From assembly GCA_029781135.1 (NCBI GenBank), contig JAKOXH010000031.1, positions 112,697-144,696 of the forward strand: DNA of 32,000 bases. The letters run 5' to 3'. Numbering within the stretch: position 1 is the stretch's first letter; the number at the start of each line of letters is the position of its first letter. Of the stretch, positions 817 to 22,256 are shown in pieces. The position numbers were made by a program, and so were the translations under genes. The notes under the pieces were generated by a model, which was given only the letters and a program-made list of their open reading frames with translations, was not told where the DNA came from and searched no databases. This DNA comes from Planctomycetota bacterium (GTDB taxonomy: Bacteria > Planctomycetota > Planctomycetia > Pirellulales > Lacipirellulaceae).

Positions 817-893
817 GGGGGAGGGGACGGGATACGGGGACAGGGGACAGGGTTGCGAGTGCGGAATTGGGAATGGGGAGTGGGGAATTAAGA
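817..893. repeat. G-rich tandem-heptamer tract (GGGGACA / GGGAATG / GGGAGTG units) abutting the cls start codon
   Basis: Sequence is ggggaggggacgggatacggggacaggggacaggg...ggaattgggaatggggagtggggaatt. It is complementary to the tract at 1226-1262. Confidence 0.8.
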
Positions 894-967
894 AAACGTG
901 TTTAGCGGCGGCGGCAACGCCGTCCTATCGCCAAGGGCGCTTGCAGTACAATCGTTTCGGGAATAAG

Positions 968-1003
968 TGACGAATGGGGAATTGGGAATCCGGAGTGGGG
1001 AAT
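968..1003. repeat. Second G-rich copy of the GGGGAAT/GGGGAGT tract
   Basis: Sequence gaatggggaattgggaatccggagtggggaatat, in the same orientation as 866-893. Confidence 0.7.
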
Positions 1004-1225
1004 ATGACCTAAATGAGAACTGTCTGGTCAATGGCACACAAAAACATCAACGAATGCCGCCCCCTTTCCAGTATCGTCTGCGATTTGCTCCTTCACAAAA
1101 AGGCCGATTACTCCCAAAATAAGTGAGTATTGCTGTGACGATGAACCAGCGGTCCGCGCTCCGCTGGCGCGTCGCGGCTAAACGGCCGATCATTAGCGAG
1201 GCAAGAAACGACGATTGAATTGTCT

Positions 1226-1262
1226 TGATTCCCCACTCCCCACTCCCCATTCCCCACTCGCC
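1226..1262. repeat. C-rich arm (reverse complement of the GGGGAGT/GGGGAAT tract) abutting the queD start codon
   Basis: Sequence gattccccactccccactccccattccccactcgcccc, followed directly by ATG at 1265. Confidence 0.8.
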
Positions 1263-1264
1263 CC

Positions 1265-1726
1265 ATGTCCCTCACCATTATGCGTCGAATTCGCTTCTGT
1301 GCGGGGCACCGGCTCCACCGGCACGGTGGCAAGTGTGAGTATTTTCACGGGCATAATTACATCGCCGATTTCTACGTGACCGGCGACGCGGTCGACGCCG
1401 TGGGCCGGGTGATCGACTTCGCCGAACTGAAAAAGCTCTTCAAAGGCTGGCTCGACGACCACTGGGACCACGGGTTCGTGCTCAACGAATCGGACGAGAA
1501 CGGCCTGGCGGCCGTGAAGATGGTCGAGCCGTGCCGCTATTACGTGCTGCCGTACAACCCAACATCGGAGAACATGGCCAGCTACTTGCTGCACGAAGTG
1601 TGCCCGAAGTTGCTCGCGGGCAAAGGCGTCACCGCGACGAAGGTGGTGCTATGGGAGAGCGACGAATCGTTCGCCGAGGCGGCACTCGACCGGCCGACTG
1701 TTTCTAGTAGGACGTGTGGAAATTAG
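1265..1726 (+). CDS. queD: 6-carboxy-5,6,7,8-tetrahydropterin synthase (6-pyruvoyl-tetrahydropterin synthase family)
   Basis: 153 aa. Contains FCAGHRL...GKCEYFHGHNY (Cys plus His triad region typical of QueD/PTPS) and a C-terminal VVLWESDESFAE. Confidence 0.9.
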   Translation: MSLTIMRRIRFCAGHRLHRHGGKCEYFHGHNYIADFYVTGDAVDAVGRVIDFAELKKLFKGWLDDHWDHGFVLNESDENGLAAVKMVEPCRYYVLPYNPTSENMASYLLHEVCPKLLAGKGVTATKVVLWESDESFAEAALDRPTVSSRTCGN

Positions 1727-1882
1727 TTGCATTCTCATATGCTTCAGATTCTGTCGACGCGGGTGGCACGGACAGTCGGCGGCGGAAGGCGTTGTCACCG
1801 AATGCGTCTCATTCGGCCGATTGTCCGCTTTCGTACGTCAGGCTTTAACCTGACCGCTCCATGGCGATTGACCGTTCCGATG

Positions 1883-1924
1883 GTCAGACTAAAGGCCGAC
1901 CTACGACGTGCGTTCCGCAAATAT
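1883..1924. repeat. REP-like palindromic element (gtcagactaaaggccgac family)
   Basis: Similar to the second half of the elements at 16111-16229 and 16925-17043. Confidence 0.6.
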
Positions 1925-2104: not shown

Positions 2105-2138
2105 TTTTGCCACGTCACCAGATCCCTAGGAAGTTGCC

Positions 2139-3551
2139 ATGTCTGCCAATCGAAAGTGGACCCGAAGACAAGTGCTCCAAGCGACCGCGGCGGCTGGTGC
2201 GGCTCCGCTCTTTGTTCCGTCGCGGGTGCTTGGCCGGGGCGGCGCGGGGGCGAACGAGCAATTGAATGTCGGGATCATCGGCCTCGGTGGGCGGGCTCGC
2301 GACATCGCGAAGACCGTCCACACGACGCCGAACATCCGCATCGTAGCGGTGTGCGATTGCTTCAAGCCTCGATGGGATAAGTTCATCGAGGATGTATCGA
2401 ATGGCCAAAAGTGGAAGACGTACGGCGATTTCCGCCAGATGATCGAGCGCGAGAAACTCGACGGCGTGATGGTCGAAACCACGACGCACGCCCGGGCGTG
2501 GATCGTCATTCAGGCGATGCAGGCCGACATGGATGTGTACATCGAGAAGCCGATGTGCCTCACAATTTCCGAGGGGCGGCAAATGGTGAAGGCGGCCCGG
2601 CATTACAAGCGGGTGACGCAGGTCGGCACGCAGCAGCGGTCGATGCCGATCAATAATTGGGCCAGCGACTTGGTGAAGAACGGGGCGATCGGCAAGGTAC
2701 ACACGGTGCTCGCGCCGAATTTCATCGGCCCCGATGATTGGCCAGGCAAACCGGAAGAGAAAATGCCGGAGGGCGGCGACGGCAAATGGTGGGACGTGTG
2801 GACGAACCAGGCGCCGCTCCGGCCGTATCATCGCGATATTCATTACGGCTGGGCCCGCTGGCGCGACTACGACGCGGGCGGGTTGTGTTTTGGCGTGAGC
2901 GGCTGGGGCACGCATTCGTACGACCAGATCAACCGCGCGCTCGGCACCGACGAAACGGGGCCGCTGGAAATACTGCTGGAGGAGCCGGTGGCGGTGCGCG
3001 AGTCGGGCAAGTTCGCGGCCCGCACGTCGGTGGGCGGCGTGACCGTGGGCGAAACGGGCGACATCGACACGGGCGTCGATTATTTCTCGATGGCCAAGCT
3101 CAGCGGCCCGCGGGCGAAGGTGACGATGACGTTTGCCAACGGCACGAAGGTGAAGTTCCACCTGGATGGCGATCGCGGACCTGGGTTAGGCGCGATTTTT
3201 ATCGGCGACAAGGGCAAGATCGAAATCAATCGCAACAAGCTGGCCAGCAACCCGCGCGAGATTGTGCGTTCGCCGGAGAACCCGGGACCAAACAAGAAGC
3301 CGGAGACGCAGTATCACATCGAAAACTGGGCGGAGTGCATCAAGTCACGAGGTCGGTGCAACGCGGATATTGAGTACGGCCAGCGGGCGACGTCGTTGTG
3401 TGAATTGATCAATATCACGCGCAACGTGGGCCGCGTGGGCGAGGCGTTAAAATGGGACCCGGTGGCCGAGCGATTCACGAACTGCGACGAGGGGAACGCG
3501 ATGCTGAGCCGCGAACGGCGAAAGGGTTATGAGTTGCCGGCATTGGGCTAA
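2139..3551 (+). CDS. Gfo/Idh/MocA family oxidoreductase with Tat signal
   Basis: 470 aa. Twin-arginine signal WTRRQVLQATAAAGAAPLF, then a Rossmann-type GIIGLGGRA motif and EKPM. Confidence 0.85.
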   Translation: MSANRKWTRRQVLQATAAAGAAPLFVPSRVLGRGGAGANEQLNVGIIGLGGRARDIAKTVHTTPNIRIVAVCDCFKPRWDKFIEDVSNGQKWKTYGDFRQMIEREKLDGVMVETTTHARAWIVIQAMQADMDVYIEKPMCLTISEGRQMVKAARHYKRVTQVGTQQRSMPINNWASDLVKNGAIGKVHTVLAPNFIGPDDWPGKPEEKMPEGGDGKWWDVWTNQAPLRPYHRDIHYGWARWRDYDAGGLCFGVSGWGTHSYDQINRALGTDETGPLEILLEEPVAVRESGKFAARTSVGGVTVGETGDIDTGVDYFSMAKLSGPRAKVTMTFANGTKVKFHLDGDRGPGLGAIFIGDKGKIEINRNKLASNPREIVRSPENPGPNKKPETQYHIENWAECIKSRGRCNADIEYGQRATSLCELINITRNVGRVGEALKWDPVAERFTNCDEGNAMLSRERRKGYELPALG

Positions 3552-3656
3552 GGCGCGGGTAGCCTAAGGCGCGGGTAGCCCCCGGCTCTACCGGGGGTTT
3601 GAAGTGGCTCGCCCAACATAGAGCAACGCACTTTGTACCCCCGGCAGAGCCGGGGG
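3548..3656. repeat. Tandem 16-mer (ctaaggcgcgggtagc x2) plus two cccccgg-N5-ccggggg hairpins
   Basis: Tandem copies at 3548-3563 and 3564-3579, overlapping the stop codon. Hairpins at 3579-3597 and 3638-3656. The first is followed only by TTT, so terminator function is uncertain. Confidence 0.7.
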
Positions 3657-3704
3657 CTGACGGCAACAGAAGTGTTGAATTATTCGTTAGGAGCAAATCA
3701 TCCC

Positions 3705-4352: not shown

Positions 4353-4354
4353 GT

Positions 4355-6310: not shown

Positions 6311-6316
6311 TCCAGC

Positions 6317-7011: not shown

Positions 7012-8859
7012 ATGCCGCCGGAGGACAAGAGTGCTTCGCGCAACTTCATCCAGCAAATCATCGACGCCGACCGGGCCGCCGGGAAGAACGGTGGGCGGGT
7101 ACACACGCGGTTTCCGCCGGAGCCGAACGGGTATTTGCATATCGGCCATGCGAAGAGCATTTGTCTGAACTTTGGCCTCGCGCAGGAGTTCGGCGGTAAG
7201 TTCAACCTGCGGTTCGACGACACGAACCCGACGAAGGAAGAGCAAGAGTACGTCGACTCGATTGTGGACGATGTCAATTGGCTCATCGCGGCGTTTGGCG
7301 AGACGCAAGGGTTCAGGGCTCAGGGTTCAGAGTCGACATCGGCGGCGCGAACTGAACCCCGAACCCTGAATCCTGAACCCTTGTACGCTTCGGATTACTT
7401 TCAGCAGCTTTACGATTGGGCAATCCAGCTTATCAAAGAAGGCAAGGCATACGTGTGCGACCTATCGGCGGAGGAAGTGCGCGCCCATCGCGGCACACTG
7501 AGCGAGCCAGGCAAGAACAGCCCGTATCGCGATCGCAGCGTGGCTGAGAACTTAGAACTGTTCGAGCAAATGAAGAAGGGCGAGTTCCCCGACGGCACGC
7601 GCACGTTGCGGGCAAAGATCGACATGGCGTCGCCGAACCTCAACCTGCGCGACCCCGTGATGTACCGCATCAAGCATGCGTCGCACCATCGCACGGGCGA
7701 CAAGTGGTGCATCTACCCGTCCTACGATTACACGCACGGCCAAAGCGATTCGATCGAGGGCATTACGCACTCGATTTGCACGCTGGAGTTTGAGAACCAC
7801 CGACCGCTGTACGATTGGTTTTGCCGCGAGTTGCGGATTCATCACCCGCAGCAGATCGAATTCGCGCGGCTCAACCTCACGTACACCGTGATGAGCAAGC
7901 GCAAGCTATTGCAGTTGGTGCAAGAAAAGCACGTGGCCGGTTGGGATGATCCGCGGATGCTCACGATTCGCGGCCTGCGCCGCCGTGGCTACACGCCCGA
8001 GGCAATTCGGGCATTCTGCGAGCGGATCGGCGTGGCGAAGTTCGATAGCACAATCGAAATGACGTGGCTCGAAGACGCCGTCCGCGAGGATCTCAACGAG
8101 CGGGCCCCGCGAGTGATGGCCGTGCTGCGGCCGCTCAAGGTGGTCATCACGAATTATCCCGAGGGGCAAGTCGAGCAGTTGGAAGCGGCAAACCACCCGC
8201 AGAACGCCGCGATGGGCACGCGGCAAGTGCCGTTTGCACGCGAGTTGTACATCGAGGCCGACGACTTCATGGAAGACGCGCCGAAGAAATTCTTCCGGCT
8301 CGCCCCCGGGCGCGAAGTGCGGCTGCGGTACGCGTATTTCATCACTTGCAACGAAGTGGTGAAGGATAAGGCCGGTAACATCATAGAGCTACGCTGCACA
8401 TACGACCCGGCCACCCGCGGCGGCAATGCCCCGGATGGCCGCAAGGTAAAGGGCACGATTCACTGGGTGGCGGCCCCGATGGCTGCGACGGCAGAAATTC
8501 GCGTGTATGACCATTTATTCAAGACCGAGTTTCCTGATGAGGTCGAGGGTCAAGGGTCGAGCGTCGAGGGCCAGACCAAAGTGACCAGCGCTGTATCCTC
8601 ATCCTCTGTCCCTCGACCCTCGACGCTCGACCCTCGACCCCACAGCTTCCTCGACAACATCAACCCCAATTCGCTGACCATCGTCCACGACGCCAAGCTC
8701 GAACCCTCGCTTGCTGCGGCACAGCCTGGCCAGCATTTCCAGTTCGAGCGATTGGGCTACTTCTTCACCGACCCGGTTGCTTCCAAGCCCGGCACCGCCA
8801 TTTTCAATCGCACGGCAACGCTCCGCGATACATGGGCAAAAGAAGCTGGAAAGGAATGA
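7012..8859 (+). CDS. glnS: Glutamine--tRNA ligase
   Basis: 615 aa. HIGH motif [21 protein letters not shown] (KMSKS-like), and class I GlnRS-type sequence throughout. Carries two extra low-complexity segments. Confidence 0.95.
7306..7383. repeat. In-frame hairpin element inside glnS (GGNTCAG heptamer arms)
   Basis: Arm caagggttcagggctcagggttcag, loop, then ctgaaccccgaaccctgaatcctgaacccttg. It is 78 nt, exactly 26 codons ([26 protein letters not shown]). Confidence 0.85.
8541..8640. repeat. In-frame hairpin element inside glnS (GGTCGAG heptamer arms)
   Basis: Arm ggtcgagggtcaagggtcgagcgtcgaggg, a 39-nt loop, then ccctcgaccctcgacgctcgaccctcgacc. Encodes [11 protein letters not shown]...[10 protein letters not shown]. 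Confidence 0.85.
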
Positions 8860-11501: not shown

Positions 11502-11521
11502 TCTTCGGCCTCGGAAGGAGC

Positions 11522-11644
11522 TTTCAATTCGAGCCTTTAGGCAACTTCTTTACGAACCCGGCTGCTTCCAAACCTGGCACCCCCATTTTCAATCGCGCTG
11601 CGACATTACGCGACACTTGGGCGAAGGAAGCTGGGAAAGACGAG
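11522..11644 (+). pseudogene. Detached second copy of the glnS 3' end (last 40 codons)
   Basis: Translates [40 protein letters not shown] versus the glnS C-terminus [40 protein letters not shown]. The stop is replaced by gag. Confidence 0.85.
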
Positions 11645-11695
11645 GAATTTCGGCCAATTTCATCGGCAATTTTCGTGGAACTCCCTCCCGTCGAG

Positions 11696-11704
11696 TGGTA
11701 TAAT
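11696..11704 (+). promoter_or_regulatory. Extended -10 promoter element (TGGTATAAT) upstream of the second surface-protein gene
   Basis: tggtataat is a perfect TGnTATAAT, 64 nt upstream of ATG 11768. The -35 is weak (tggaac). Confidence 0.4.
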
Positions 11705-11767
11705 CACCACCCGCTAGTGTACCGCAGCGGTAACTCGCTTTCTCGCTTTGGGAGGCAGTGGTTGGCA

Positions 11768-14700
11768 ATGATTCGTCGGCAAATGACTCGCAGTTCCGTT
11801 TTCGTAGTTATGGCATTTGCTTCGTCGCTCCTGCTGCCGAATTCGGCTCGCGCCACCAAGTTCTGGAAGAACAGTGTCACGAGCGGCAACTGGTCCAATG
11901 GAAATAACTGGAGTGCCGTCTCCGCCGCTGGGGCCGATAACGGCGGCGTGCCGGTGGCAAGTGAACAAACGCGGATCGTAAATACGGATGGCGTGGCGCG
12001 CACGGTAACGCTCGATACGAATACACCGTCGCTCGGACTCGTAGCCATCGACCTCACGGGTGCCGGTACAACAGCCAACACGCTCTCAATTCCTAACAAC
12101 AACACAATGACCGTGGGTGCCATGGCAGTGGGTGGCCACAATGGCGTCACGACCACCAACGGTCGAGGCGCGCTGACGCAAGCCAACGGCTCCGTCACGA
12201 TTAGTTCGGGGCTCGACCTGGTGGTTGGCTGGGGCGCGGGCTCCACCGGCACATACACCTTAAGCGGCGGGTCGCTCACCGCGCCACAATCGGAATTCAT
12301 CGGTTCCTCGGGAACCGGCACGTTCAATCACTCCGGGGGCACGAACACAATTTTGGCCGGCGCAATCGGCTATTTGAATGTTGGCACGTCCTCTGGCGCC
12401 ATGGGGAATTACAACCTTAGCGGCACGGGACAGCTCATCTCGAACAAATCGGAATACATCGGCGACGCCGGCGCTGGCAACTTCGTTCAAACCGGTGGTT
12501 CAAACACCATTGTGGGCACTGGCAACAGCCTGTATCTCGGATACAGCACAACAAATACTAGCCCTACCGGTGGCACGTACGCACTTAGCTCCGGCTCGCT
12601 CACGGTTAGTGGCCAAATGTACGTCGGGTATAACAAGGTGGGGGCATTTAACCAAAGTGGCGGCACAGTGAATATAAATGGCCATACCACCGAAGATCTC
12701 GTAATTAGCGGTGCGGGAAGTGCAACTGGCAGCTTTAATCAAACCGGGGGAACATTCCATGCCGAGGGACTCGTGAAGGTCGGCTACACGGGACTTGGAA
12801 GCCTCGTCATCGATGGGCAAGATTCGGACTTTTCAGCGCTTTTCATCGAAATCGGGCAGTATGGTACTGGCAATATGGTTGTTAGTGGAGGAGCTTCGGC
12901 AACTTTTAATCTGGACGTCGATCTTGCTTTCAACGGCACCGCCCATGTTACGGTGAAGGATCCCGGATCTCTCCTGCAAACAAACAGCTATCTAGTGCTT
13001 GGCAATGGCGGAGTGGGTACCTTGGATATTCAAAATCAAGGCGTTGTCAGCATTGGGACGGATTTGATTGTTCATCTCAATAGTGCGGTCAATGTGATTG
13101 GCGGCACGCTACGCCTCAACAGCATTGATACTGGAGACATGGACCGAGTGAACTATTCGTCTGGAACAATCCAGCTTATCGGTAACCGTACGGTTGGCAG
13201 CGCGTCGGGCGATGCGATCGTTTCTCACTTTTTTGGCGGCGCTCCTACGATTCCGATTGGAAAAGGGTTGACTGTGGAGGGTACGGCGACGCTTCTGACT
13301 TCTACCGTGATCGACGGCGGCACATTTTCCGTCGGTCAACTGGCGAACGCAGCCAACTTGGGAATGAATCGGGGTACATTCAACCTCACCAACCAAGCCC
13401 TGACGATCGGTGCGGGCGGAACATTCGGCAGCACGCTCGATATTAACACTGGCATGACCGTCAACGTGACCCTCGGCACCACGAACCAAGGCCTCGTCAC
13501 GGGCGACGGCGAAATCGGCGGTACGTTCACCAACGCGGCGGCCGGCGAGCTGCGCGGCGAGCCGGGAAAGTCGCTGAAGTTAACGGGCGCAAGCAACACG
13601 AACGCCGGTCAAATCAACTTGCTCGGTGGGCTCGTCGAATACACGCAAGGACTGACCAACAACGCCGGCGGCTTTATCTCGGGCAATGGCACACTGAAAA
13701 CGAACGCTCTCACCAACAGCGGTACGATGAATTTCAGCGGCCTCGCGAACATCGTCGGCGATGTCACGAATAACGCCGGTGGGAAAATCATCTCTTCCGG
13801 CGGTGGACCTACGACGTTCTTCGACGATGTCACGAATAACGGCGAGATTCGAACGACGTCCGGCTCTTTTACGGTCTTCTACGGTGCTGCCACGGGTTCT
13901 GGCACGTACACCGGGCTGGGCACGGTGAACTTCGAAGGTGATCTCAAGCCAGGGAACAGCCCGGCCGCTGTCCACTTCGACGGAGACGTCGTTCTTGGCA
14001 CAGCGTCGACACTTCGTATGGAATTAGGCGGCAGTACCGTTGGCAGCCAATACGATCAAATCAATGTGGCGGGCAAGCTCACGCTCGGCGGCACACTGGA
14101 AATAACACTGATCAATGGTTTCATTCCCACCCTAGGTCAGTCGTTTGATTTGTTGAATTGGGGAACCGTGGCCGGTGCCTTTGCATCGCTCCAATTGCCC
14201 TCGGTGCCCGGCCTCGTCTGGAACACGTCGCAGCTTAGTGCTGGAATTGTAAGTATTGTGGCAGCCGGCATTCCTGGCGATTACAACAACAACGGCGTCG
14301 TCGATGCAGCCGATTATGTGCTGTGGCGCGAGAATCCCAGCGCCTACGGCGGAAGCCCGGCGGGCTACAACACGTGGCGTACCAATATTGGCCAAACCGC
14401 GGGAAGTGGTACTGGGTCGTCCCTTGGTTTCACAGACACTTCCGTTCCCGAACCGGCTGGAATCGTGCTACTCGCAGTCGCTGCCGCCAGCCTGCTTGGC
14501 GCCCGAAAGGCATTCAGCATGTTAAGAACTGCTGCGCTAGCGTGCCTGGTTTCCTTATTGGTAACGTCGCGGTTAACGTTCGCCGGAACGGTAATCACTG
14601 CCAACTTGCCGCCCAATACGGCCATCGTCAACATCGATGCGAAGCAGGATGGCGCGGCAACTTGGAACAGCGGCCAAGACAGTTGGTTCCATCCATTCTT

Positions 14701-15637
14701 CACAGGCGGGGCCACGGGGCTGCTGCAGTACGCCATCGCCCCAGGAACGTATCAATTCCGCTTGACGAACCCTTCGCTGGCCGCAACGCAGTTTCCTGCG
14801 CTCACCGCTGGCCAACTCTCCCAAATTTTCACGGCATGGACGTATAACTCACCGTGGATCACCGACTACTTCGTTTTCGACAGTGCCGGCGCCACCAATT
14901 TTTCCGTTCCGCAAATTTTCGCGGGAGCGATTCGGCCGAGCGGACTCACCGGAGGAACCGGCTCTGCCACCGAGGCCTTCAACTTGGCCACCACGTACGA
15001 ATTCGACGATGTGATCGTCAAACAGCCCGGTGGGCGAATTACCGGCGTTCGCACGACGCTCTATACGTTCACCGCACCAGAAACGCTCACCTTTGCCGTT
15101 CCCGACAATATCCTCTCCGATAATAACGGTGGAATATCAGTCGTTATCAGCCAGGTCGCAGGCGTCGGCGTCCCCGGCGACTACAACAACAACGGCGGCG
15201 TCGACGCGGCCGACTACGTTCTGTGGCGCAACGGCGGCCCGTTAGCGAATGAAGTTGATGCACCGGGGACTGTCAACGCGCAGGATTACATGGAATGGCG
15301 AAACCGCTTTGGCAACACGAGCGGCAGCGCCGCGCTCGCGGGTCATTCAACAGTCCCTGAGCCGGGAATTGGCGGCCTCATATTCGTGCTCTGCGTTACG
15401 CTGGGAATATTCAATCGCACGGCGACACGATGCGATACGTTAGCGAATGAATTTGGAAGGAAACCAATGGCCTGCCATCGACAAAGGATACGTAAAACCA
15501 CGGGACGCGTCCTTCCGTCAACCCCTTCGAAAGCCAGCCCTTCCGTAGCTGCGGCGAACTCTCGTCTCTTAAAGCCAACGTCGAACGCGCGCTCGGTATT
15601 CATCGTACTGGATGCCGAACGTTCCTTGGAGTTTTGA
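11768..15637 (+). CDS. Dockerin/PEP-CTERM surface protein ORF: two gene-like units fused without a stop (unit B 11768-14518, unit C 14519-15637)
   Basis: GGGAGG lies 12 nt before ATG 11768, followed by signal peptide MIRRQMTRSSVFVVMAFASSLLLPNSARA. Unit B is a paralog of 8988-11501 and ends in VPEPAGIVLLAVAAASLLGARKAFS. It is followed in frame by a new signal-like MLRTAALACLVSLLVTSRLTFAG. Unit C has its own GDYNNNGGVDAADYVLWR and VPEPGIGGLIFVLCVTLG. Confidence 0.7.
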   Translation: MIRRQMTRSSVFVVMAFASSLLLPNSARATKFWKNSVTSGNWSNGNNWSAVSAAGADNGGVPVASEQTRIVNTDGVARTVTLDTNTPSLGLVAIDLTGAGTTANTLSIPNNNTMTVGAMAVGGHNGVTTTNGRGALTQANGSVTISSGLDLVVGWGAGSTGTYTLSGGSLTAPQSEFIGSSGTGTFNHSGGTNTILAGAIGYLNVGTSSGAMGNYNLSGTGQLISNKSEYIGDAGAGNFVQTGGSNTIVGTGNSLYLGYSTTNTSPTGGTYALSSGSLTVSGQMYVGYNKVGAFNQSGGTVNINGHTTEDLVISGAGSATGSFNQTGGTFHAEGLVKVGYTGLGSLVIDGQDSDFSALFIEIGQYGTGNMVVSGGASATFNLDVDLAFNGTAHVTVKDPGSLLQTNSYLVLGNGGVGTLDIQNQGVVSIGTDLIVHLNSAVNVIGGTLRLNSIDTGDMDRVNYSSGTIQLIGNRTVGSASGDAIVSHFFGGAPTIPIGKGLTVEGTATLLTSTVIDGGTFSVGQLANAANLGMNRGTFNLTNQALTIGAGGTFGSTLDINTGMTVNVTLGTTNQGLVTGDGEIGGTFTNAAAGELRGEPGKSLKLTGASNTNAGQINLLGGLVEYTQGLTNNAGGFISGNGTLKTNALTNSGTMNFSGLANIVGDVTNNAGGKIISSGGGPTTFFDDVTNNGEIRTTSGSFTVFYGAATGSGTYTGLGTVNFEGDLKPGNSPAAVHFDGDVVLGTASTLRMELGGSTVGSQYDQINVAGKLTLGGTLEITLINGFIPTLGQSFDLLNWGTVAGAFASLQLPSVPGLVWNTSQLSAGIVSIVAAGIPGDYNNNGVVDAADYVLWRENPSAYGGSPAGYNTWRTNIGQTAGSGTGSSLGFTDTSVPEPAGIVLLAVAAASLLGARKAFSMLRTAALACLVSLLVTSRLTFAGTVITANLPPNTAIVNIDAKQDGAATWNSGQDSWFHPFFTGGATGLLQYAIAPGTYQFRLTNPSLAATQFPALTAGQLSQIFTAWTYNSPWITDYFVFDSAGATNFSVPQIFAGAIRPSGLTGGTGSATEAFNLATTYEFDDVIVKQPGGRITGVRTTLYTFTAPETLTFAVPDNILSDNNGGISVVISQVAGVGVPGDYNNNGGVDAADYVLWRNGGPLANEVDAPGTVNAQDYMEWRNRFGNTSGSAALAGHSTVPEPGIGGLIFVLCVTLGIFNRTATRCDTLANEFGRKPMACHRQRIRKTTGRVLPSTPSKASPSVAAANSRLLKPTSNARSVFIVLDAERSLEF
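15407..15466 (+). pseudogene. Third, more degraded copy of the glnS 3' end (last 20 codons), fused to the end of unit C
   Basis: IFNRTATRCDTLANEFGRK versus gln[23 protein letters not shown] atattcaatcgcacggcgaca versus attttcaatcgcacggcaacg. Confidence 0.65.
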
Positions 15638-16045
15638 TTCTTCCAGCGGAATCACGATCCAGTTAACGTACGCGATCGCCACGGGCAGAAAAACGATCGG
15701 CCAGAAGTGGCTTAACAGCAGAGCCTCACCGAGGTACGCGATTGTGAGACCGATATACATGGGGTTCCGCGTGAAGCGATACGGGCCCCAAGTGACCATC
15801 TGCGAGGAAATTTTACCGGGAACCGTCGTCGTGTGAGCCCGCCAGAAAGTCACCAGTCCCCAACCGGCGACGACAACACCGACGCCTAAGGTGACGCCAC
15901 CGACGATGCTTACATCGGGCACTTGTTCCACAATTCGCAATGGGTACGCTCGTTCCACGGCGAAGCCGATCAGGTACACGAGCACGAATATCCACGGCAC
16001 GGGAAGACGTAACAGAAATCGGATTGGGTTGCGAGTGGGCTCCAT
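15569..16045 (-). CDS. Isoprenylcysteine carboxyl methyltransferase (ICMT/PEMT) family membrane protein
   Basis: ATG at 16045. Multi-TM protein with TWGPYRFTRNPMYIG and a C-terminal EE..L...FG..Y..Y...V.RW pattern. Confidence 0.8.
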   Translation of the reverse strand: MEPTRNPIRFLLRLPVPWIFVLVYLIGFAVERAYPLRIVEQVPDVSIVGGVTLGVGVVVAGWGLVTFWRAHTTTVPGKISSQMVTWGPYRFTRNPMYIGLTIAYLGEALLLSHFWPIVFLPVAIAYVNWIVIPLEESKLQGTFGIQYDEYRARVRRWL

Positions 16046-16242: not shown

Positions 16243-16587
16243 CTAGAGTCGTTCTGCCCCAAGGATAAGCGCCAGTTGGTCGCGGAGCGTGGGAACCTTA
16301 TTCACGACGACATCCCAAACGATGTCGTAATCAACGGCAAAGTAGCCGTGAATGAGCCGGTCACGCATGCCTACGACGGTTTGCCAAGGTACTGTCGGGT
16401 GCTTATCCCGAAATGACTGCGGAATCCCCTTGGCCGCATCGCCGAGAATTTCAATACTGCGGACGAAAGCCCGGCGGCGAGTCTCATCGGCGAGAAACTG
16501 TTGCCGGTCGATGCGTTGAGATTCGACGACGAGATACTCCGTTTCGTCGAGCATGTGTTGCGCCAAATCAGTCACCGAGTTCGACAT
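16243..16587 (-). CDS. hepT: HepT (DUF86/HEPN) ribonuclease toxin of a type VII TA pair
   Basis: ATG at 16587 overlaps the mntA end by 20 nt. RX4HXY motif in GMRDRLIHGYFAVDYDIVWDVV. Confidence 0.85.
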   Translation of the reverse strand: MSNSVTDLAQHMLDETEYLVVESQRIDRQQFLADETRRRAFVRSIEILGDAAKGIPQSFRDKHPTVPWQTVVGMRDRLIHGYFAVDYDIVWDVVVNKVPTLRDQLALILGAERL

Positions 16588-16884
16588 CCTCGACCTCGGC
16601 AAGAATTCGTGGGCCGATGTAAGGGCTTAGCGACTCGGTTGTCACAAGTTCCACGCGTCGCTGCAACACGCTTTCCAGCAAATCGGCCAGGGCCATGAAG
16701 TTATCGAACGTCTTTTCACCCGCGCGAAATTCGACCAACAGATCGACGTCGCTATTTGGCTCGCATCGTTTCGCGCGAACGAACCGAATAGCCCGAGCCG
16801 GCGAACGCCGTGGGACCGGATTCGCCTCGGCTCCTGGGCGAGGCGTTGCAGCAAATCGTGTTTTTCGGTGACGGCTGCGACCAT
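16568..16884 (-). pseudogene. mntA: MntA-type nucleotidyltransferase antitoxin, interrupted by a 1-nt frameshift
   Basis: The N-terminal frame (ATG 16884) gives ...GVRRLGLFGSFARNDA. The C-terminal frame gives EPNSDVDLLVEF...RRVELVT. The frames join only if one base is added near 16762/16763. Confidence 0.75.
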
Positions 16885-16924
16885 ATCTTGATTCTAGCAC
16901 GTAACATCTGGACTTTCACGTCCC

Positions 16925-17043
16925 GATTCGTAGGTCAGGCTTCAGCCTGACCAGTTTTGCAGTGGGATGCTGTATCGTCAGACTAAAGCCTGACCTACGT
17001 TGCGTTACCAATACACGTATCGCAGGAACAGCTCTTGTTCACG
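16925..17043. repeat. 119-bp direct repeat, copy 2 (overlaps the true 3' end of the ABC gene)
   Basis: See 16111-16229. Contains gtcaggcttcagcctgac and gtcagactaaagcctgac hairpins, plus codons EREQELFLRYVYW*. Confidence 0.8.
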
Positions 17044-20000
17044 TTCGGGCAGGGCTTCGACGTCGGGGACCAGGTAGCGGTTGTCGTCGAGATCAAGGAG
17101 GATCTTGCCGCGTTCGCCGAAGTCTTGCACCTGGCTTTGGCTCCAGCGCATCGTGAATTGGCGCGGGCCGTGGGCGGTGCGGACGTCGAGCGTCAAGTGC
17201 CCAAGCTCGAGCTTGATCGAATCGACGCCCGTGACGGTTTGTAGCCAGTAGCGGCGGTTGAGGGCCTCGCGCACGAGCACGCGGGCTTCCACGGGCCACT
17301 CGTCGAGGCGCCGCACGATGCCGATTTCGTGCTCGGTGCCGTCGCGGTTCCACACGCGGAGGCTGATGTAGTCGTCCGGGTTGGTGGCCGGGAAGAGGTT
17401 GACGGCGAACACACCACGCCACGTGGTCGAGTCTCTCCGAGACTCGAACGAACTGTTAAAGTCTGGCGGTGATTTGGAATCCGCGTCTCGGAGAGACGCC
17501 GCCACATGCACTTCCATGCCGCCGAGGCGGGCGGTGTGGATACGTGTATCGTTGGGCGTGAGCCAGCGTAGCTGACTTGATTGGTTGATGGCCGACGACT
17601 CGGCCGCCAATTCGTCGGTTGAGCGAGCTTCGCCCTGGAGACGCACGAGGTTCGCGTACTGGCCGCCATGAGCGATCAACAGTTCGTGGGTGCCTTGCTC
17701 GACGAGCCGACCGCGATCGAACACCAGAATGCGATCAGAATCGCGCAAGGTCGATAGCCGATGGGCGATGGCGATGGTGGTTCGCCCGCAAGTGAGGGCC
17801 TTGAGGGCTTGCTGAATCGCCTGCTCACTTTCGGCGTCGATGTTGCTCGTCGCTTCGTCGAGCACCAGGATCGGCGGATCGTACAGAATCGCCCGGGCGA
17901 TCGACATCCGTTGCCGTTCGCCGCCAGAAAGTCCGGCACCGCGTTCGCCCAGCCAGGTATCGTAACCCAGCGGCGAGTTGAGAATGAAATCGTGAGCCTG
18001 GGCAGCCTTGGCCGCCGCGATGGCTTGTTCCGGTGTGCTTTCCGGCATCCCGTACACAAGGTTCTGCCAAATCGTACCGCGGAACAGGAACGGGTCTTGG
18101 AGCACGACGCCGATGTGCCGACGCAGCTGCCCAGAAGGCAGCCGTCGCACATCAATGCCATCGACCAACACGCGGCCTTCGCAGACGTCGTAGAACCGGC
18201 AGAGCAAGTTGACGAGCGTCGTTTTGCCGCTGCCGCTTTTGCCCACGATACCGATCGTCTCGCCGGCGCGAATTTCGAAGTCGATATCGCGCAGCACCGG
18301 CTGATGCCGCTCGTAGCCGAACGTAACGTGGTCGAAACGGATATGACCAAGGGCGGAGGGAGTGGGAGAATGGGAGAGTGGGAGAGTGGGAGAATCAGGT
18401 GAGCGGTCGTTCGAAGGGTCTCCCCCTCTCCCCCTCTCCTTGTCTCCCCCTCTATTCATCGAAGTAATTTCGGGTAAGTTCAGAGGATCGGATGGCTCCA
18501 TCACTTCCACCGGCGTATCGAGCAATTCAAATACACGTTGGCAACCGGTAAGAAAGTTAGTCAGCCACGTGGTGAATTGCGAAAGCGTAGCCAACGGCGT
18601 GTAGAACATCGCCAAGTACGCCAGGAACGCCATCAGCGAGCCGAGAGACATGGTGCCGGCAAGAACATCGCGACCGCCGACATACCAGACGATCAGGCCA
18701 CCCAAACTGAAAATGAGTTGCATTGTCGCGGAAAACGCGGCCGTCGAATAATCAACGTGCATGCGACAGGCACGCAGGTAATCGCTAATTTTGTTGAACC
18801 GGGCGAACTCGCGGTCCTCCTGGGCAAAGGCCTTCACGACGCGAATGCCGGAAAGCATGCCGGTGAGCATGCCAGCTTGTTTGGCGCTGGAATCCCAGTA
18901 GCGATAGTGCTTGGGATGGACGTGCTTCCAAAAGAACCAACTGCCGGCGATCACAAGCGGCGCTGGAATTAGCGTGAACAGCGCAAGTTTCGGGTTGAGC
19001 GTCGTGAGCATAATGCCCACAGCTGTCACCTGAACGATTTGTAGCAAGAAACCGCCCGTAATTTGGTGCAACAGGCTTTGAATGACTTCGCTGTCGTACG
19101 CCACGCGACTGGTGATCGAGCCGACTTGATGGCGGTCGTAATAGCCGAGACCCAGCATGTGGAGTTTTTCCACGAGCTTGGCGCGTAGATCGAAGGTAAG
19201 CGCCACGCCGACGCGAGTCGCCATCCGGCCTTTGGCAAAGTTGACCGCACTCAACACGAGCCGAGCGGCGGCGAGCGACGACACGACCACGAACAGGCCG
19301 AAGAACAGGCCGGGGGTGTCGGGCGAGCGTTGACCACTCTTGAGAATGTGATCGACCAGGTATTGCTGCAACTTGGGTGGCGTGAGTTCGGCGGCCACGG
19401 CCAAACACATGAGGCCGCACATCACGAAAGCAGTGACACGATACGGCCACAACATTTGCACGAGCCGAGCAAGGATGGCCTTGCGGGGAATACAGCGCGG
19501 ACAAGCTTCATTCGGCACGGGCAAGCGCTGTCCGCACTTTTCGCAGTGTGTTTTCTTGGGAGTCGCGTCTTCCTGAAACTCGACCTTGCCGTCAGTGCGC
19601 AGGTCTTCCAGGTACTTAGCCAGGCGACTGAAGCGATCGGCCTCAGTATTGGGAAAGCGGGCCAGGTCGACCCAATAGTCGTCGACGTAGGCTTGAAGGA
19701 AGCCGGAGCCAACCGCGTTTTGCGTGCGGAACTCGCGGACCTGGGAAACGGGCACATGCACAACGACGCTTGGCGCCGCAGCGCCGTTTGGTTCACCAGA
19801 TGGCGAGAGGGGGAGAGGGGGAGAGGGGGAGGATCTTGAGTGGAGCGTTTTCGACGGAATCTCCCCCTCTCCCCCTCTCCCATTCTCCCGCTCTTTGGCT
19901 GCCTCGCCCTCTTTGATCGCGGCCACATTTTCGCGCGTGGCCACGATCCAGTTCCGCTCTGGCTCGCCAGACAGCGAGAGCTCGCTGCTGGCACAGAGCA

Positions 20001-20073
20001 GCACGGGCACGCCGTTGAGACCACGACGGTCCAGTTCTTCATGAACATCCACCGGCAATTCTTCAGTAAACAT
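17005..20073 (-). CDS. Multidomain ABC exporter: N-terminal cytoplasmic domain + zinc ribbon + type I exporter TMD + NBD + C-terminal DUF1854-like domain
   Basis: 1022 aa. Contains HCEKCGQRLPVPNEACPRC, six-TM region, Walker A GKSGSGKTT, signature LSGGERQR, and Walker B ILVLDEATS. The roughly 190-aa C-terminal extension ends in ...DDNRYLVPDVEALPEREQELFLRYVYW. Confidence 0.85.
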   Translation of the reverse strand: MFTEELPVDVHEELDRRGLNGVPVLLCASSELSLSGEPERNWIVATRENVAAIKEGEAAKERENGRGGEGEIPSKTLHSRSSPSPPLPLSPSGEPNGAAAPSVVVHVPVSQVREFRTQNAVGSGFLQAYVDDYWVDLARFPNTEADRFSRLAKYLEDLRTDGKVEFQEDATPKKTHCEKCGQRLPVPNEACPRCIPRKAILARLVQMLWPYRVTAFVMCGLMCLAVAAELTPPKLQQYLVDHILKSGQRSPDTPGLFFGLFVVVSSLAAARLVLSAVNFAKGRMATRVGVALTFDLRAKLVEKLHMLGLGYYDRHQVGSITSRVAYDSEVIQSLLHQITGGFLLQIVQVTAVGIMLTTLNPKLALFTLIPAPLVIAGSWFFWKHVHPKHYRYWDSSAKQAGMLTGMLSGIRVVKAFAQEDREFARFNKISDYLRACRMHVDYSTAAFSATMQLIFSLGGLIVWYVGGRDVLAGTMSLGSLMAFLAYLAMFYTPLATLSQFTTWLTNFLTGCQRVFELLDTPVEVMEPSDPLNLPEITSMNRGGDKERGRGGDPSNDRSPDSPTLPLSHSPTPSALGHIRFDHVTFGYERHQPVLRDIDFEIRAGETIGIVGKSGSGKTTLVNLLCRFYDVCEGRVLVDGIDVRRLPSGQLRRHIGVVLQDPFLFRGTIWQNLVYGMPESTPEQAIAAAKAAQAHDFILNSPLGYDTWLGERGAGLSGGERQRMSIARAILYDPPILVLDEATSNIDAESEQAIQQALKALTCGRTTIAIAHRLSTLRDSDRILVFDRGRLVEQGTHELLIAHGGQYANLVRLQGEARSTDELAAESSAINQSSQLRWLTPNDTRIHTARLGGMEVHVAASLRDADSKSPPDFNSSFESRRDSTTWRGVFAVNLFPATNPDDYISLRVWNRDGTEHEIGIVRRLDEWPVEARVLVREALNRRYWLQTVTGVDSIKLELGHLTLDVRTAHGPRQFTMRWSQSQVQDFGERGKILLDLDDNRYLVPDVEALPEREQELFLRYVYW
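18355..18453. repeat. In-frame hairpin element inside the ABC gene (TMD-NBD linker)
   Basis: Arm ggagggagtgggagaatgggagagtgggagagtgggagaat, loop, then tctccccctctccccctctccttgtctccccctct. Encodes RGGDKERGRGGDPSNDRSPDSPTLPLSHSPTPS. Confidence 0.8.
19805..19894. repeat. In-frame hairpin element inside the ABC gene (N-terminal domain)
   Basis: Arm gagagggggagagggggagagggggagg, a 27-nt loop, then tctccccctctccccctctcccattctccc, with about 20 bp of perfect pairing. Encodes GRGGEGEIPSKTLHSRSSPSPPLPLSPS. Confidence 0.85.
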
Positions 20074-20128
20074 GGCTATCCGTGAGGCAAATCAATGCGA
20101 GTAATAAGGGAAGAACCGAGCGGCTCCC

Positions 20129-20150
20129 CGGCAACAACGTGTTGTTGCCG
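20129..20150. promoter_or_regulatory. Perfect 22-bp palindrome upstream of the ABC gene (candidate operator)
   Basis: cggcaacaacgtgttgttgccg, 56-77 nt upstream of the ABC start codon. Confidence 0.3.
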
Positions 20151-20395
20151 CGCGGCCCGGTGCCCAGAAAGTAAGTACGCCGCACTAAGCTAGCGAACGG
20201 CGGTTATCGCCTGTGAAGGTGCGATTCATAGCAAACTGGCCCGCATGCGAAAAGGGCAGTGATGCCAGCAGCAAATAACGCCATTACATCGGATGGGGCC
20301 CTTCAAGAACGCAGTGGTGGCGAGCTTGTTGGGAGTACCTGGATTAGCCCCCGCTGCTCGCTACAAGCCGTGGCAATTATTTCAGTCCGTACAAC

Positions 20396-21310
20396 ATGGA
20401 CAATATGCCGCGGAGAAAAATTTTTCTAAAATCTCTTGGGGCGGCATGGCTAGTCGTCGCCACCGAGTTCGCAACCCGCGAATGTGTCCGAGAACTTGTG
20501 GAATTGAAATTGATGAATTCGCTTCGAGCTGTTCTTGCCACTTTCTTAGTTCTTCTGCCGCAAGCAGTTGTTTCCGGTACAGAACCCGTGCTTCGCGACA
20601 GCGAGGGCGGCATCGTCCGCGGCGATTTGAAAACGAAGTCGCTTGCTCTGGCTTTCACCGGCGACGAACAAGGCGAAAGCACCGCACCCATTCTGGATGT
20701 GCTCAAGCAGCGGAAACTCCGCGCGTCGCTGTTTGTAACGGGGAACTTTCTGCGGCAGCCCGCCTTGCGGCCGTTACTAAAGCGCGCTCTTGCCGAAGGG
20801 CACTACGTCGGGCCGCACTCCGACCGGCATTTGCTTTACGCGGCGTGGGAAGATCGCGGTAAATCACTGGTGACGCGCGATGCGTTTACATCGGATCTTC
20901 GCCAGAACATTTGTGATCTGCACGCAATTGGCGCGTTGCGCGGTAACGGCCCGATTTACTTCATTCCGCCCTATGAGCAGTTCAACCGCGAACAGGTGGC
21001 TTGGGCGCGGGAATTAGGCGTGACGCTAATCAACTTCACGCCGGGCAGCGGTTCAAATCGCGATTATGCTCCGGAAGGCGATGCCCACTTTGTCACCTCG
21101 CAGCGAATCTATGACGACATCCTCACGTATGAACAGCGCGACCCGCACGGGCTGAACGGGTTCATCCTCCTGCTGCATCTGGGTTCAGGTCGGAAAGACC
21201 CGTTTCACCCGCGGCTTGGCCCGCTGTGTGATGAACTCACAAAGCGGGGCTACACGTTCTTACGCGTCGATGAACTGCTGCCCATGCCCACCCCGCAGAC
21301 TCCGAAATGA
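20396..21310 (+). CDS. Polysaccharide deacetylase (CE4/NodB-homology) family protein, exported
   Basis: Contains LALAFTGDE...ASLFVTGNFL and GPHSDRH (HSxxH-type motif). There are two candidate signals: Tat-like MPRRKIFLKSLGAAWLVVA from ATG 20396, and Sec-like MNSLRAVLATFLVLLPQAVVSG from ATG 20513. Confidence 0.75.
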   Translation: MDNMPRRKIFLKSLGAAWLVVATEFATRECVRELVELKLMNSLRAVLATFLVLLPQAVVSGTEPVLRDSEGGIVRGDLKTKSLALAFTGDEQGESTAPILDVLKQRKLRASLFVTGNFLRQPALRPLLKRALAEGHYVGPHSDRHLLYAAWEDRGKSLVTRDAFTSDLRQNICDLHAIGALRGNGPIYFIPPYEQFNREQVAWARELGVTLINFTPGSGSNRDYAPEGDAHFVTSQRIYDDILTYEQRDPHGLNGFILLLHLGSGRKDPFHPRLGPLCDELTKRGYTFLRVDELLPMPTPQTPK

Positions 21311-21328
21311 CCTGCCGTGGGGGAAGTT

Positions 21329-22105
21329 CTACTTTTTCGCGTGGGCAGCGGCGGGCACCTTTGGCACACTTGGGAGTGCCGGTGCCGTGCCCGGCGCTTT
21401 GGCTGAAGTTTCTGTGAGTAGGAAGATCTCGACGCAATCATTTTCGTTCTGCATCGACGCTTCGAGGTCCGTCGTCAAGGGGTCATTCGCGCCCGATTGG
21501 CTTAAGCGGACACGTTCCGGCTCAATCTTGTTGCGGAGCAGGAAGTTCATCACTTCTACGCTGCGCGCGTAGCATAATTTCCAATGATCGCCATTGTAAG
21601 GGCCGTTAGTAGCCAGCGGTCGGCGCGTCGAATGGGCGCGCAGCTCGATCCGGTTTTGTTTGCCTTGGATCGCGGGCAACAGGTCGCTCAATCGTTGCTT
21701 GGCGACCTTGTCTAACTCCGCGGAGCCATTCGCGAATTGCACTACCAACGCGGGTACGCTGCGATCGTTGCTGTTAATGATGTACACCTTCTGGCGTTGC
21801 TGCCAAACCGAAGCGGCCCCAGCTTCTTTTTCGGTAGCATTTTCCTGGTTGGATTGTGGCCAGCGGTTTGGCAACATGCCATTCGAAGCGTCTCCGAACG
21901 GAGCACTTCCACTGATGCCCGAGGGCGACATCATCGTGGGCGTGGAGCTTTCTTGCGTGGTGCCCCAAGGATCCTGAAAGTAGCCGCCGATGGCTTCCTT
22001 GACTTCCTCGCTTTGCGCGGTGAGCCACATGACCATGAAGAAGGCCATCATCGCCGTGACGAAGTCCGCATAGGCCACTTTCCATGCACCGCCGCTGCCA
22101 GCCAT
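21329..22105 (-). CDS. motB: Flagellar motor stator protein MotB (OmpA-like C-terminus)
   Basis: AWKVAYADFVTAMMAFFMVMWL plug/TM signature with the conserved Asp. Has a C-terminal OmpA-like region. Confidence 0.9.
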   Translation of the reverse strand: MAGSGGAWKVAYADFVTAMMAFFMVMWLTAQSEEVKEAIGGYFQDPWGTTQESSTPTMMSPSGISGSAPFGDASNGMLPNRWPQSNQENATEKEAGAASVWQQRQKVYIINSNDRSVPALVVQFANGSAELDKVAKQRLSDLLPAIQGKQNRIELRAHSTRRPLATNGPYNGDHWKLCYARSVEVMNFLLRNKIEPERVRLSQSGANDPLTTDLEASMQNENDCVEIFLLTETSAKAPGTAPALPSVPKVPAAAHAKK

Positions 22106-22170
22106 TGCTTGCCTCTGTTCGCTTCACTGAAGGTTGAAATCTATCTGCTCCGTTAGCCCGTTCTCGATGC

Positions 22171-22256
22171 GAGACAAGGAGACAAGGAGAGGGGGAGACA
22201 AGAAGATCGCGATTCACACTTGTCTCCTTGTGTCCTTGTCTCCTTGTCTTCCTCTC
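22171..22256. repeat. Hairpin element (GAGACAAG octamer arms) between motA and motB
   Basis: Arm gagacaaggagacaaggagagggggagacaag, a 13-nt loop, then cttgtctccttgtgtccttgtctccttgtct. The right arm touches the motA stop codon (22255-22257). Confidence 0.85.

Follow-up and report, generated by a model that had tools for sequence, protein, structure and literature searches.

Which kind of element keeps its architecture and its polarity and changes its sequence from copy to copy, even inside essential genes? The question is raised by a stretch of 32,000 nucleotides (nt) from a Planctomycetota bacterium of the Lacipirellulaceae (assembly GCA_029781135.1, contig JAKOXH010000031.1, positions 112,697 to 144,696 of the forward strand), hereafter the window. 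It contains six loci, A to F, at which a G-rich array of tandem 7- to 8-nt units is followed by a spacer and a complementary C-rich array. Two of them (B and C) lie within glnS, the gene of the glutaminyl-tRNA synthetase GlnRS, two (D and E) within an ABC exporter gene, and two (A and F) between genes. On balance, and with slightly better than even confidence, we regard the six loci as cargo-less members of a widespread class of hairpin-forming repeats whose arms behave like simple-sequence repeats, whose alleles recombine between lineages, and whose genic copies are probably passengers.

Paired convergent arrays at six loci

Tandem Repeats Finder (TRF) detects 15 arrays of period 7 or 8 in the window, against 1.6 on average, and never more than 5, in 100 dinucleotide-preserving shuffles, and 14 of the 15 stand in the paired layout of G-rich array, spacer, and complementary C-rich array. 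At the six loci a repeat finder recovers inverted pairs with arms of 28–44 nt and complementarity of 76%–96%. Both arms of every locus are themselves tandem arrays: of period 7 with 2.4–4.6 copies at loci A, B, and C, and of period 8 at D, E, and F. RNA folding of the five short elements (B to F) yields long hairpins with free energies from −45 to −69 kcal/mol and z-scores from −2.4 to −7.5. The arrangement of paired, complementary arrays is confirmed at all six loci, and the G-rich arm is the 5′ arm in six out of six.

An earlier note on this DNA had described six such loci, each with arms of 7- to 8-nt units that differ by locus and with a single polarity; all three points hold, and each locus was found where it had been placed. 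The loop of 13–39 nt that the note gave for all of them applies to the five short elements but not to locus A, at which three G-rich blocks face one C-rich block from 224–341 nt away and the blocks bracket the whole spacer between the divergent cls and PTPS genes. The G-quadruplex (G4)-type tracts attributed to the G-rich arms (at least four runs of three or more G, judged from reading the sequence) are present at A, D, and E but not in the other arms.

The units outside locus A are GGGTTCA, GGTCGAG, GGGGAGAG, and GAGACAAG; the GGGAATC/GGGGAYT type known from other bacteria (see below) is approached only by A. Element B, element C, and the group of D, E, and F have no sequence in common.

Four other identities were rejected. 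The RYYYAAC/GTTRRRY cores of integron attC sites are missing; there is no T-run, and there are no terminator-search matches, as would be expected of intrinsic terminators; the frames are open and stop-free, unlike those of translational bypass elements; and intrastrand-triplex BoxC motifs (PMC4666352) have a different architecture.

Genic copies as additions to variable loops

Among the 120 closest homologues of the window's GlnRS the common length is 562 aa, without either insert. At the first glnS site (element B) the insert replaces the conserved loop GGNWEDRL, and this site is filled in about eight of the 120: by the GGGTTCA element in six (the window included) and by another insert in two. 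The second site (element C) is the loop FPDD-AP-EGK-TFLDNIN, which holds at least five unrelated insert types across lineages, mostly palindromic at the DNA level. Compared with the solved structure 5bnz, both inserts fall exactly between aligned blocks. A predicted GlnRS model from a shallow alignment (mean predicted local-distance difference test score, 40) was not used; the position of the inserts between aligned blocks and the length variation among orthologues suggest that they are exposed at the surface. The ABC exporter has a baseline of ∼930 aa, and its sites D and E hold different elements in different lineages, element E being retained in orthologues down to 74% identity. In both proteins Pfam domains are found on both sides of the inserts.

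Most Pirellulales orthologues of GlnRS and of the ABC exporter lack the inserts and are otherwise conserved, which argues that the genic copies are additions and not ordinary linkers. Elements B, C, D, and E are thus derived, lineage-specific additions in variable loops, and the likeness that the earlier note saw to the in-frame Rickettsia palindromic elements (RPEs) extends to this property. Low-complexity linkers that resemble hairpins by chance would account for the encoded peptides, which are of low complexity and do lie in variable loops. They would not account for complementarity of the observed degree over arms of this length, for folding z-scores down to −7.5, or for the same architecture in the noncoding loci A and F, and the orthologue alignment that the note had proposed, in which the peptides are missing from most sequences, rules out this reading; we give it next to no credence.

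The reading frames of the insert-bearing genes are open in all orthologues. An array of (TGAACCC)n cycles through all three frames and so presents one in-frame TGA per three units; in element B the unit in that frame reads CGAACCC, in the window as well as in two related genomes (L081 and L082). An AGGTGTC element at the D site of L081 likewise has CTCACGC as its TGA-framed unit. In either element a return to the consensus unit introduces a stop. The open frames and the mutation of the sole TGA-framed unit are the reasons for reading the genic inserts as probably translated, and they add to the observation of the note that four copies (two in glnS, two in the ABC exporter) leave their frames open. 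Most other units are stop-free in all six frames, which helps to explain how units survive inside genes.

Other in-frame palindromic inserts occupy GlnRS site 2 and ABC sites D and E in other lineages (P0008, P0012, P0016, P0114, P0125, P0132, P0170, and others). Their types include SRSGEPSR...AARLAAPTG, RSHAERGNK, and PPLPPGEGRGEG...PNPLPxGEG; the last of these occurs in both the GlnRS and the ABC exporter of different genomes and, being found in two different genes, looks like a mobile family.

Unit turnover, shared families, and allele exchange

Element B is common to the window, L081, and L082, with an identical imperfection of the C-rich arm in all three, and is best understood as one old insertion. 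Among the three glnS genes the arms have diverged by 6%–12%, the 4-fold degenerate sites by 36%–44%, and the 23-nt loop by 43%–70%. At the insertion site part of the ancestral loop is apparently read in a shifted frame. L081 has element B and L083 does not, and their glnS genes are 96%–98% identical except in a patch of ∼140 nt around site 1, within which the L081 gene resembles the window allele. This patch, together with the scatter of insert types over the GlnRS tree, indicates that filled and empty alleles have been exchanged between lineages by short-patch recombination.

Arms that are three to six times better conserved than 4-fold degenerate sites could mean that the genic copies are functional in place, either because a hairpin or G-quadruplex regulates glnS and the ABC exporter (by pausing or mRNA cleavage) or because the peptides have a role. 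The retention of element E down to 74% identity would agree with this, and similar G-rich heptamer repeats form G-quadruplexes in vitro (PMC4692102). Nevertheless, most orthologues do without the inserts and are otherwise conserved, close relatives have a different element or none at the same site, the mismatches in the window are of the kind that weakens a stem in the sense RNA, and the loop peptides evolve at or above the neutral rate. A local function of this sort therefore seems to us very unlikely.

The unit is also replaced in place. At glnS site 2 it is GGTCGAG in the window and GGCGGAG in L082, and the loop of element C contains CCTCAT CCTCTGT, remnants that resemble the C-arm units of L082. 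The element at ABC site D is the same in the window and in L083; the exporter of L081 (90% identical protein) has instead the unit AGGTGTC/CTGACAC, with a remnant of the old C-rich arm alongside. In element D and in the site-2 element of L082 there is one mismatch per unit, from which each arm has evidently been homogenized separately. The arms thus behave as simple-sequence repeats in which the unit is an unstable family marker, and turnover of this kind explains why it differs between loci, even among the related D, E, and F. The G-rich arms of D and F share the exact string GAGACAAGGAGAGGGGGAGA, and D and E share their arms, with loops that are only weakly alignable; D, E, and F therefore form a single dispersed family whose members have seen the expansion of different variant units.

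The earlier note had left a choice between diverged subfamilies and a process that generates the structure rather than the sequence. The sequence shared by D, E, and F, the remnants at glnS site 2, and the drift of units speak for the former, and the latter is less favored: the six loci are neither one conserved MITE (miniature inverted-repeat transposable element) nor, probably, independently made at each site.

Several MITE families, each with its own unit and with arms that serve as terminal inverted repeats for a transposase encoded elsewhere, would be a conventional solution. The size of 70–110 bp would suit it, as would the dispersed copies that share sequence (D, E, and F, and a GGGTTCA family in a phage, described below). 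In-frame genic copies are known for RPEs and for intragenic repetitive extragenic palindromes (REPs; PMC3733652), and the genome holds other palindromic families, one of them GTAG-tagged. Against it, filled and empty alleles at glnS sites 1 and 2 reveal no target-site duplication, the ancestral codons being replaced or frame-shifted. The six elements have no conserved terminal motif, and none has the GTAG or CGTC end tag of REPs and bacterial interspersed mosaic elements. The number and sequence of arm units vary in a way that a sequence-specific transposase would not be expected to accept, and there is no transposase gene in the 32 kb. We consider ordinary MITEs distinctly improbable.

Occurrence in phages and other phyla

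We scanned for pairs of complementary arrays of period 6 to 9, with loci among the matches listed of a GlnRS search (mostly other phyla, best identity 70%) as controls. The window has seven pairs in 32 kb, compared with four in ∼1.2 Mb of glnS neighborhoods from other phyla (L038, L040, L051, and L074). The L038 neighborhood (Bacterium BMS3Bbin08, 9800–16010) contains 12 arrays of period 7 or 8 in ∼6 kb, with a different unit in each intergenic gap.

A search of viral contigs for exact (GGGTTCA)x3 returned 63 stretches. Together the contigs have dozens of paired arrays; many of them, mostly of 60%–70% G+C, are rich in such pairs, with several different units per contig, and two of them (L120 and L136) encode phage capsid proteins, for which a search found only relatives of ≤33% identity. 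One phage contig has at least five GGGTTCA hairpins with a common loop motif, GGACGCGCAAGCGG. The viral anatomy is regular: a stop codon, a few bases, the G-rich array, the loop, the C-rich array (of up to 20 units), and the ATG of the next gene. Outside genes the position is generally of this kind, either in a stop-to-start gap or immediately upstream of a start, as at loci A and F and in the phage copies. The architecture thus extends beyond the source genome and its phylum, to phage contigs and to other phyla.

Such hairpins occupy many intergenic gaps in the high-GC IMG/VR contigs L095, L109, L120, L124, L136, L144/L128, and L101/L104. Some of these contigs have one unit and a conserved mini-hairpin in the loop (CGC-GCAA-GCG), others a new unit in each gap; L101 has the loop motif in the orientation opposite to that of the remaining copies.

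Cassettes with a PF05635 gene

A longer version of the same layout lies just outside the window. The sequence beyond the right window end was recovered through an exact protein match and contains, at L085 8403–8849 (789–1235 nt past position 32000), a GGAGCAN array directly after the stop codon of a PfkB gene, a complete gene for a 122-aa protein of family PF05635, and a complementary array; the next gene encodes a LigT/2′-5′ RNA ligase family protein. PF05635 is the family of the 23S rRNA intervening-sequence protein, which is a four-helix bundle. Orthologous cassettes are present in L230 and L231, and the unrelated bacterium of L038 has two PF05635 genes, each with its own pair of arrays (units CGTTAAT and GAAGATAA), one of the two genes being frameshifted (11725–11955 plus 11804–12124).

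We then collected 80 metagenomic loci (L150–L229) whose PF05635 homologues are 50%–55% identical to the window-adjacent protein; judged by distance from the contig end, 72 are evaluable. Complementary period-7 flanks are present at 39 of these, arrays on one side at 26, arrays on both sides with no complementarity detected at three, and none at four, so that 68 of the 72 have at least one flanking array. The unit type RGCAKRG is common to this subfamily, and six gene-less hairpins of the same unit type lie near PF05635 loci. Five of the 80 loci hold two PF05635 copies within 2 kb. Many homologues are on contigs of ∼1 kb, as would be expected if the flanking repeats break assemblies.

The short hairpins may derive from PF05635 cassettes or share a spreading mechanism with them. 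No 23S rRNA motifs were found around the PF05635 loci, and the fetched loci contain no rRNA; a scan of the window for rRNA, Rfam families, and tRNA returned nothing. We found no paper that links PF05635 genes to tandem heptamer arms, literature coverage being incomplete.

A purine-first rule and two rival origins

Orientation was scored in 60 short-loop pairs drawn from the window, related genomes, and viral contigs: the purine-rich arm leads in 55 and is second in four, with one tie. The PF05635 loci scored for polarity are purine-first in 37 out of 37, and one unit searched in both orders gave six purine-first sites and no reversed one.

Only one model that we considered yields strict polarity directly: the hairpins would be scars of break repair, in which a telomerase-like or reiterative polymerase adds one G-rich repeat to both 3′ ends of a double-strand break before they are joined, so that a G-rich arm, a filler, and a C-rich arm result on either strand. 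It would fit the ancestral sequence missing from the flanks of both glnS insertions and the recurrence at the same hairpin-bearing sites, and PF05635 proteins are homologous to the reverse-transcriptase cofactor Avd (the bAvd match is weak). Yet no such enzyme is known or seen here, a different template would be needed for each unit, and the model leaves unexplained both the copies with a shared loop and the cassettes that keep their gene across deep divergence. We find it hardly credible.

A more serious rival, and still an unlikely one, is growth in situ: starting from a short inverted repeat at the site, replication slippage duplicates a 7- to 8-nt unit in one arm, intrastrand template switching (quasi-palindrome correction) copies it to the other, and nothing is mobile. 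Units that vary by locus and turn over in place are what this process would produce, as are arms of unequal copy number (four versus 20 units in L101). Where glnS site 2 is empty, it holds CCCGAGGGG, a string similar to GAGGG, the core of the two units present at this site, and the arms of L225 have their variant units in identical order, as expected of an inverted copy. Several observations are nonetheless hard to reconcile with local growth. Arm sequence is shared at three loci (D, E, and F), one phage contig has at least five copies of one unit with a common loop motif, and an identical element type occupies an identical site in scattered lineages. RGCAKRG remains the unit type around PF05635 homologues with no more than 50%–55% identity to the window-adjacent protein, and growth in situ gives no reason for a single polarity.

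Discussion

Under the reading that we prefer, in which the six loci belong to a widespread class of hairpin-forming repeats, an element would consist of two short convergent arrays of a 7- to 8-nt purine-rich unit, the purine- or G-rich array coming first on either strand. Copy number differs between the arms, and variant units expand and displace older ones, each arm being homogenized alone. In a longer form, a PF05635 gene lies between the arms. Elements B to E are copies in loops of GlnRS and of the ABC exporter that vary in length and in which many orthologues hold other inserts; the ribosome would read through them, and selection would keep the frames open. The same loops are refilled repeatedly by different elements, and alleles with and without an element move by short-patch homologous recombination.

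Outside genes the stem may act at the level of the transcript: it may serve in processing or stability, like the stem of rRNA intervening sequences, or couple the translation of adjacent genes. This is suggested by the rule of position (stop codon, G-rich array, C-rich array, start codon) and by the kinship with intervening sequences. Two reasons for the polarity can be proposed. The purine-rich arm may serve as a ribosome-binding leader for the content of the loop: The window-adjacent cassette has the leader AAGGAGCGAAGTC ATG, and GGAG, GAGG, or AGGA stands 4–12 nt before the chosen start in 34 of the 80 homologues, the others having purine-rich leaders. Second, with this arm order the C-rich arm would never be unpaired in nascent RNA from either strand and would offer no loading site for Rho.

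The genic copies B to E are probably tolerated passengers without a function of their own, since their mismatches are unable to wobble-pair in the sense RNA. In a wobble-pair test the PF05635 cassettes were unbiased, with 49 sense versus 42 antisense cases, and window elements B to F gave one versus 11, the latter a small sample; on the sense strand, the non-Watson-Crick positions of the window stems are 11 of A-C type and one of G-U type.

A number of points weigh against this account. The source genome is covered by 32 kb plus 9.6 kb, the loci L001, L006, L007, L009, L013, and L035 from other Pirellulales have no pairs, and the gene calls on viral contigs are crude (the longest open reading frame [ORF] wins). 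There is no PF05635 ORF or remnant in the six window loci or in the hairpin loops, and the units of the six elements differ from that of the neighboring cassette (GGAGCAN); for these two reasons derivation from the cassettes is only an association. Nothing in the wobble-pair test points to selection for a paired stem in the sense RNA. Changes in the arms of element B are few and are not compensatory, and the conservation of arms may reflect homogenization of the arrays rather than function. Finally, the 32-kb window contains no target-site duplications, conserved termini, or transposase to explain the spread.

The basic architecture and its polarity are already known. Rehm et al. 2015 (PMC4692102) reported G-rich heptamer repeats of two to a few tens of units, GGGAATC in Xanthomonas and GGGGAYT in Nostoc. 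Close convergent pairs of arrays on opposite strands number 70 in X. campestris pv. campestris; X. axonopodis pv. citri has 75. In the Xanthomonas GGGAATC pairs the G-rich array follows stop codons and the C-rich array precedes start codons; 89%–93% of the repeats are intergenic and 7%–11% intragenic, and length and sequence vary among close relatives (PMC4692102). Tandem G-rich 7-nt units, convergent pairing, and polarity are the same here, and the unit of locus A is nearly identical (GGGAAT/GGGGAAT). The Xanthomonas genomes, however, have one dominant unit each, whereas we find at least five in 32 kb, including 8-nt units. The repeats there are mostly intergenic, whereas four of our six (B to E) are in frame within genes and only A and F lie by stop or start codons; given the intragenic copies of Xanthomonas, a location next to such codons is a tendency and not a rule. 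That study was centered on G-quadruplexes and reported no link to PF05635; many of the units found here cannot form a G-quadruplex.

RPEs and intragenic REPs (PMC3733652) are, like our genic copies, in-frame palindromes in functional, even essential, genes; they are translated, and some sites are hit in several species. These families have a conserved consensus, which for RPEs is a shared one of ∼100–150 bp, whereas here only D, E, and F are alike: the architecture is conserved, unit and loop change, and the arms are tandem arrays.

In rRNA intervening sequences with a PF05635/S23p ORF (Leptospira and Coxiella), inverted repeats form a stem that is cut by RNase III; these sequences are sporadic, are always in the same few helices, and are suspected to be mobile (PMC4990558). 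They share with the present elements the terminal inverted repeats or long stem, sporadic spread, recurrent permissive sites (closely comparable to the hot spots described above), and tolerance in transcribed essential genes. They differ in that the cassettes described here stand between protein genes and have stems made of heptamer arrays, and the six window loci have no ORF. RNase III excision cannot apply to translated genic copies.

The Foldback transposons of Drosophila have long inverted terminal repeats made of short tandem units whose number varies. They are eukaryotic, kilobase-sized, and have recognizable terminal sequences, and the analogy is architectural only.

TAACTGA heptamer repeats in Beggiatoaceae, Cyanobacteria, and Bacteroidetes (PMC4679880) also end a few bases from start codons, are patchy across phyla, and break assemblies. 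They have one conserved unit, however, and are nearly always single direct arrays (169 direct sets versus one inverted pair).

We found no description of these elements in Planctomycetes, subscription journals being mostly outside the literature covered. What is new is the occurrence in planctomycetes and phages with a multitude of units, the large proportion of copies that lie in frame within essential genes and avoid stop codons, the turnover at hot spots and exchange of alleles, how strongly the purine-first rule holds, and the link by association to PF05635 cassettes. A repeat class that keeps its architecture and polarity while its sequence drifts is missed by consensus searches and breaks short-read assemblies. 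Such elements can inhabit an essential gene such as glnS, in loops that are refilled and with alleles that are exchanged between lineages. The findings connect the heptamers of Xanthomonas and Nostoc, the small inserts by which planctomycete proteins are enlarged, and the inverted repeats that flank the PF05635 genes of rRNA intervening sequences, and the near-universal purine-first rule constrains any model of origin or function.

A bolder extension, quite unlikely in our estimate, is that short hairpins, PF05635 cassettes, and rRNA intervening sequences form one class of transcript-riding cassettes. The stem would be a register-tolerant simple-sequence zipper, and the cassette could sit wherever there is transcription, rRNA helices, intergenic gaps, and protein loops included; spread would occur by homing-like short-patch recombination or through an RNA intermediate, and the Avd-like PF05635 protein would be the cassette's own factor. 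If true, rRNA intervening sequences would have a common origin with the heptamers of Xanthomonas and cyanobacteria and with hairpin inserts of the in-frame kind, and a very large uncharacterized family of four-helix-bundle proteins would have its first function.

Locus anatomy and other repeats in the window

Coordinates of the arrays and their host genes are listed in Table 1.

Table 1. Arrays, hairpin elements, and host genes in the window (positions in nt from its first letter)
Feature	Position	Strand	Remarks
Locus A, outer G-rich blocks (GGGGACA; GGGAAT/GGGGAGT)	817..890 (817-852, 863-890)		Abut cls start, CAT 814-816 on + strand
Locus A, second G-rich heptamer block	960..1003		Likewise complementary to C-rich block
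Locus A, C-rich heptamer block (TCCCCAC)	1228..1275		Runs into PTPS start codon at 1265
glnS, host of B and C	7012..8859	+	Inserts between blocks aligning to solved GlnRS structures
Element B, G-arm (GGGTTCA)x3 in glnS, reads GFRAQGS	7309..7329	+	Repeat finder, TRF
Element B, loop, 23 nt	7330..7352	+	Equal length in three genomes, 43-70% diverged
Element B, C-arm (TGAACCC)x4, unit 2 = CGAACCC, in-frame TGA removed	7353..7380	+	
Element C, G-arm (GGTCGAG units) in glnS	8538..8575	+	Repeat finder, TRF
Element C, loop	8576..8604	+	3′ part CCTCAT CCTCTGT like C-arm units at same site in L082
Element C, C-arm (CCCTCGA units)	8605..8642	+	Repeat finder, TRF
ABC exporter with DUF1854 tail, host of D and E	17005..20073	-	Pfam, orthologue comparison
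Element D, ABC exporter gene	18355..18456	-	One mismatch per 8-nt unit; on + strand, GGGAGAGT/GGGAGAAT arm 18355-18395, loop 18396-18418, TCTCCCCC arm 18419-18456
Element E, ABC exporter gene	19798..19894	-	GAGAGGGG arm 19798-19831, loop, TCTCCCCC arm 19860-19894
Element F, motA/motB gap	22169..22260	-	GAGACAAG arm 22169-22206, 16-nt loop, CTTGTCTC arm 22223-22260

Element F overlaps the motA stop codon (22255–22257) and lies 64 nt upstream of the motB start. At locus A the cardiolipin synthase gene cls is on the minus strand with its ATG at 816, and the PTPS ATG is at 1265; each of the two start codons directly abuts an array that is C-rich on the sense strand of its own gene. No PF05635 remnant and no Pfam domain were found in the 340-nt interior. 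The orthologous spacer of L082 (6744–6935) also has an array at each start codon, GGTGTCR by cls and CTATCCA by PTPS, and these two lack mutual complementarity. What is conserved is where the arrays lie, not how they read or pair. In a separate assembly of this genome from short reads, L086 begins at window position 1157, with its break inside locus A, which is consistent with arrays that are repeated elsewhere in the genome.

The window contains further repeats of other kinds. A GTAG-tagged REP-like palindrome, GTAGGTCAGGCTTCAGCCTGAC, has five copies (at 1833, 4478, 16163, 16930, and 16977), which lie on both sides of a HepT/MNT toxin-antitoxin pair (16243–16900). A second palindromic family of conserved sequence, with arms TGTGGGAGGCGTCTCCGACGCCGAT, is found at 2023–2097 and 23397–23486; the peptides RGSHDPA and RGSPDPA, related to this family, are in-frame inserts in orthologues of the ABC exporter. 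After a gene for a GFO/IDH/MocA-family oxidoreductase (2139–3551), the segment 3548–3658 holds two copies of a 16-nt tandem repeat, CTAAGGCGCGGGTAGC, followed by a palindrome with 30-nt arms (3577–3606 and 3629–3658).

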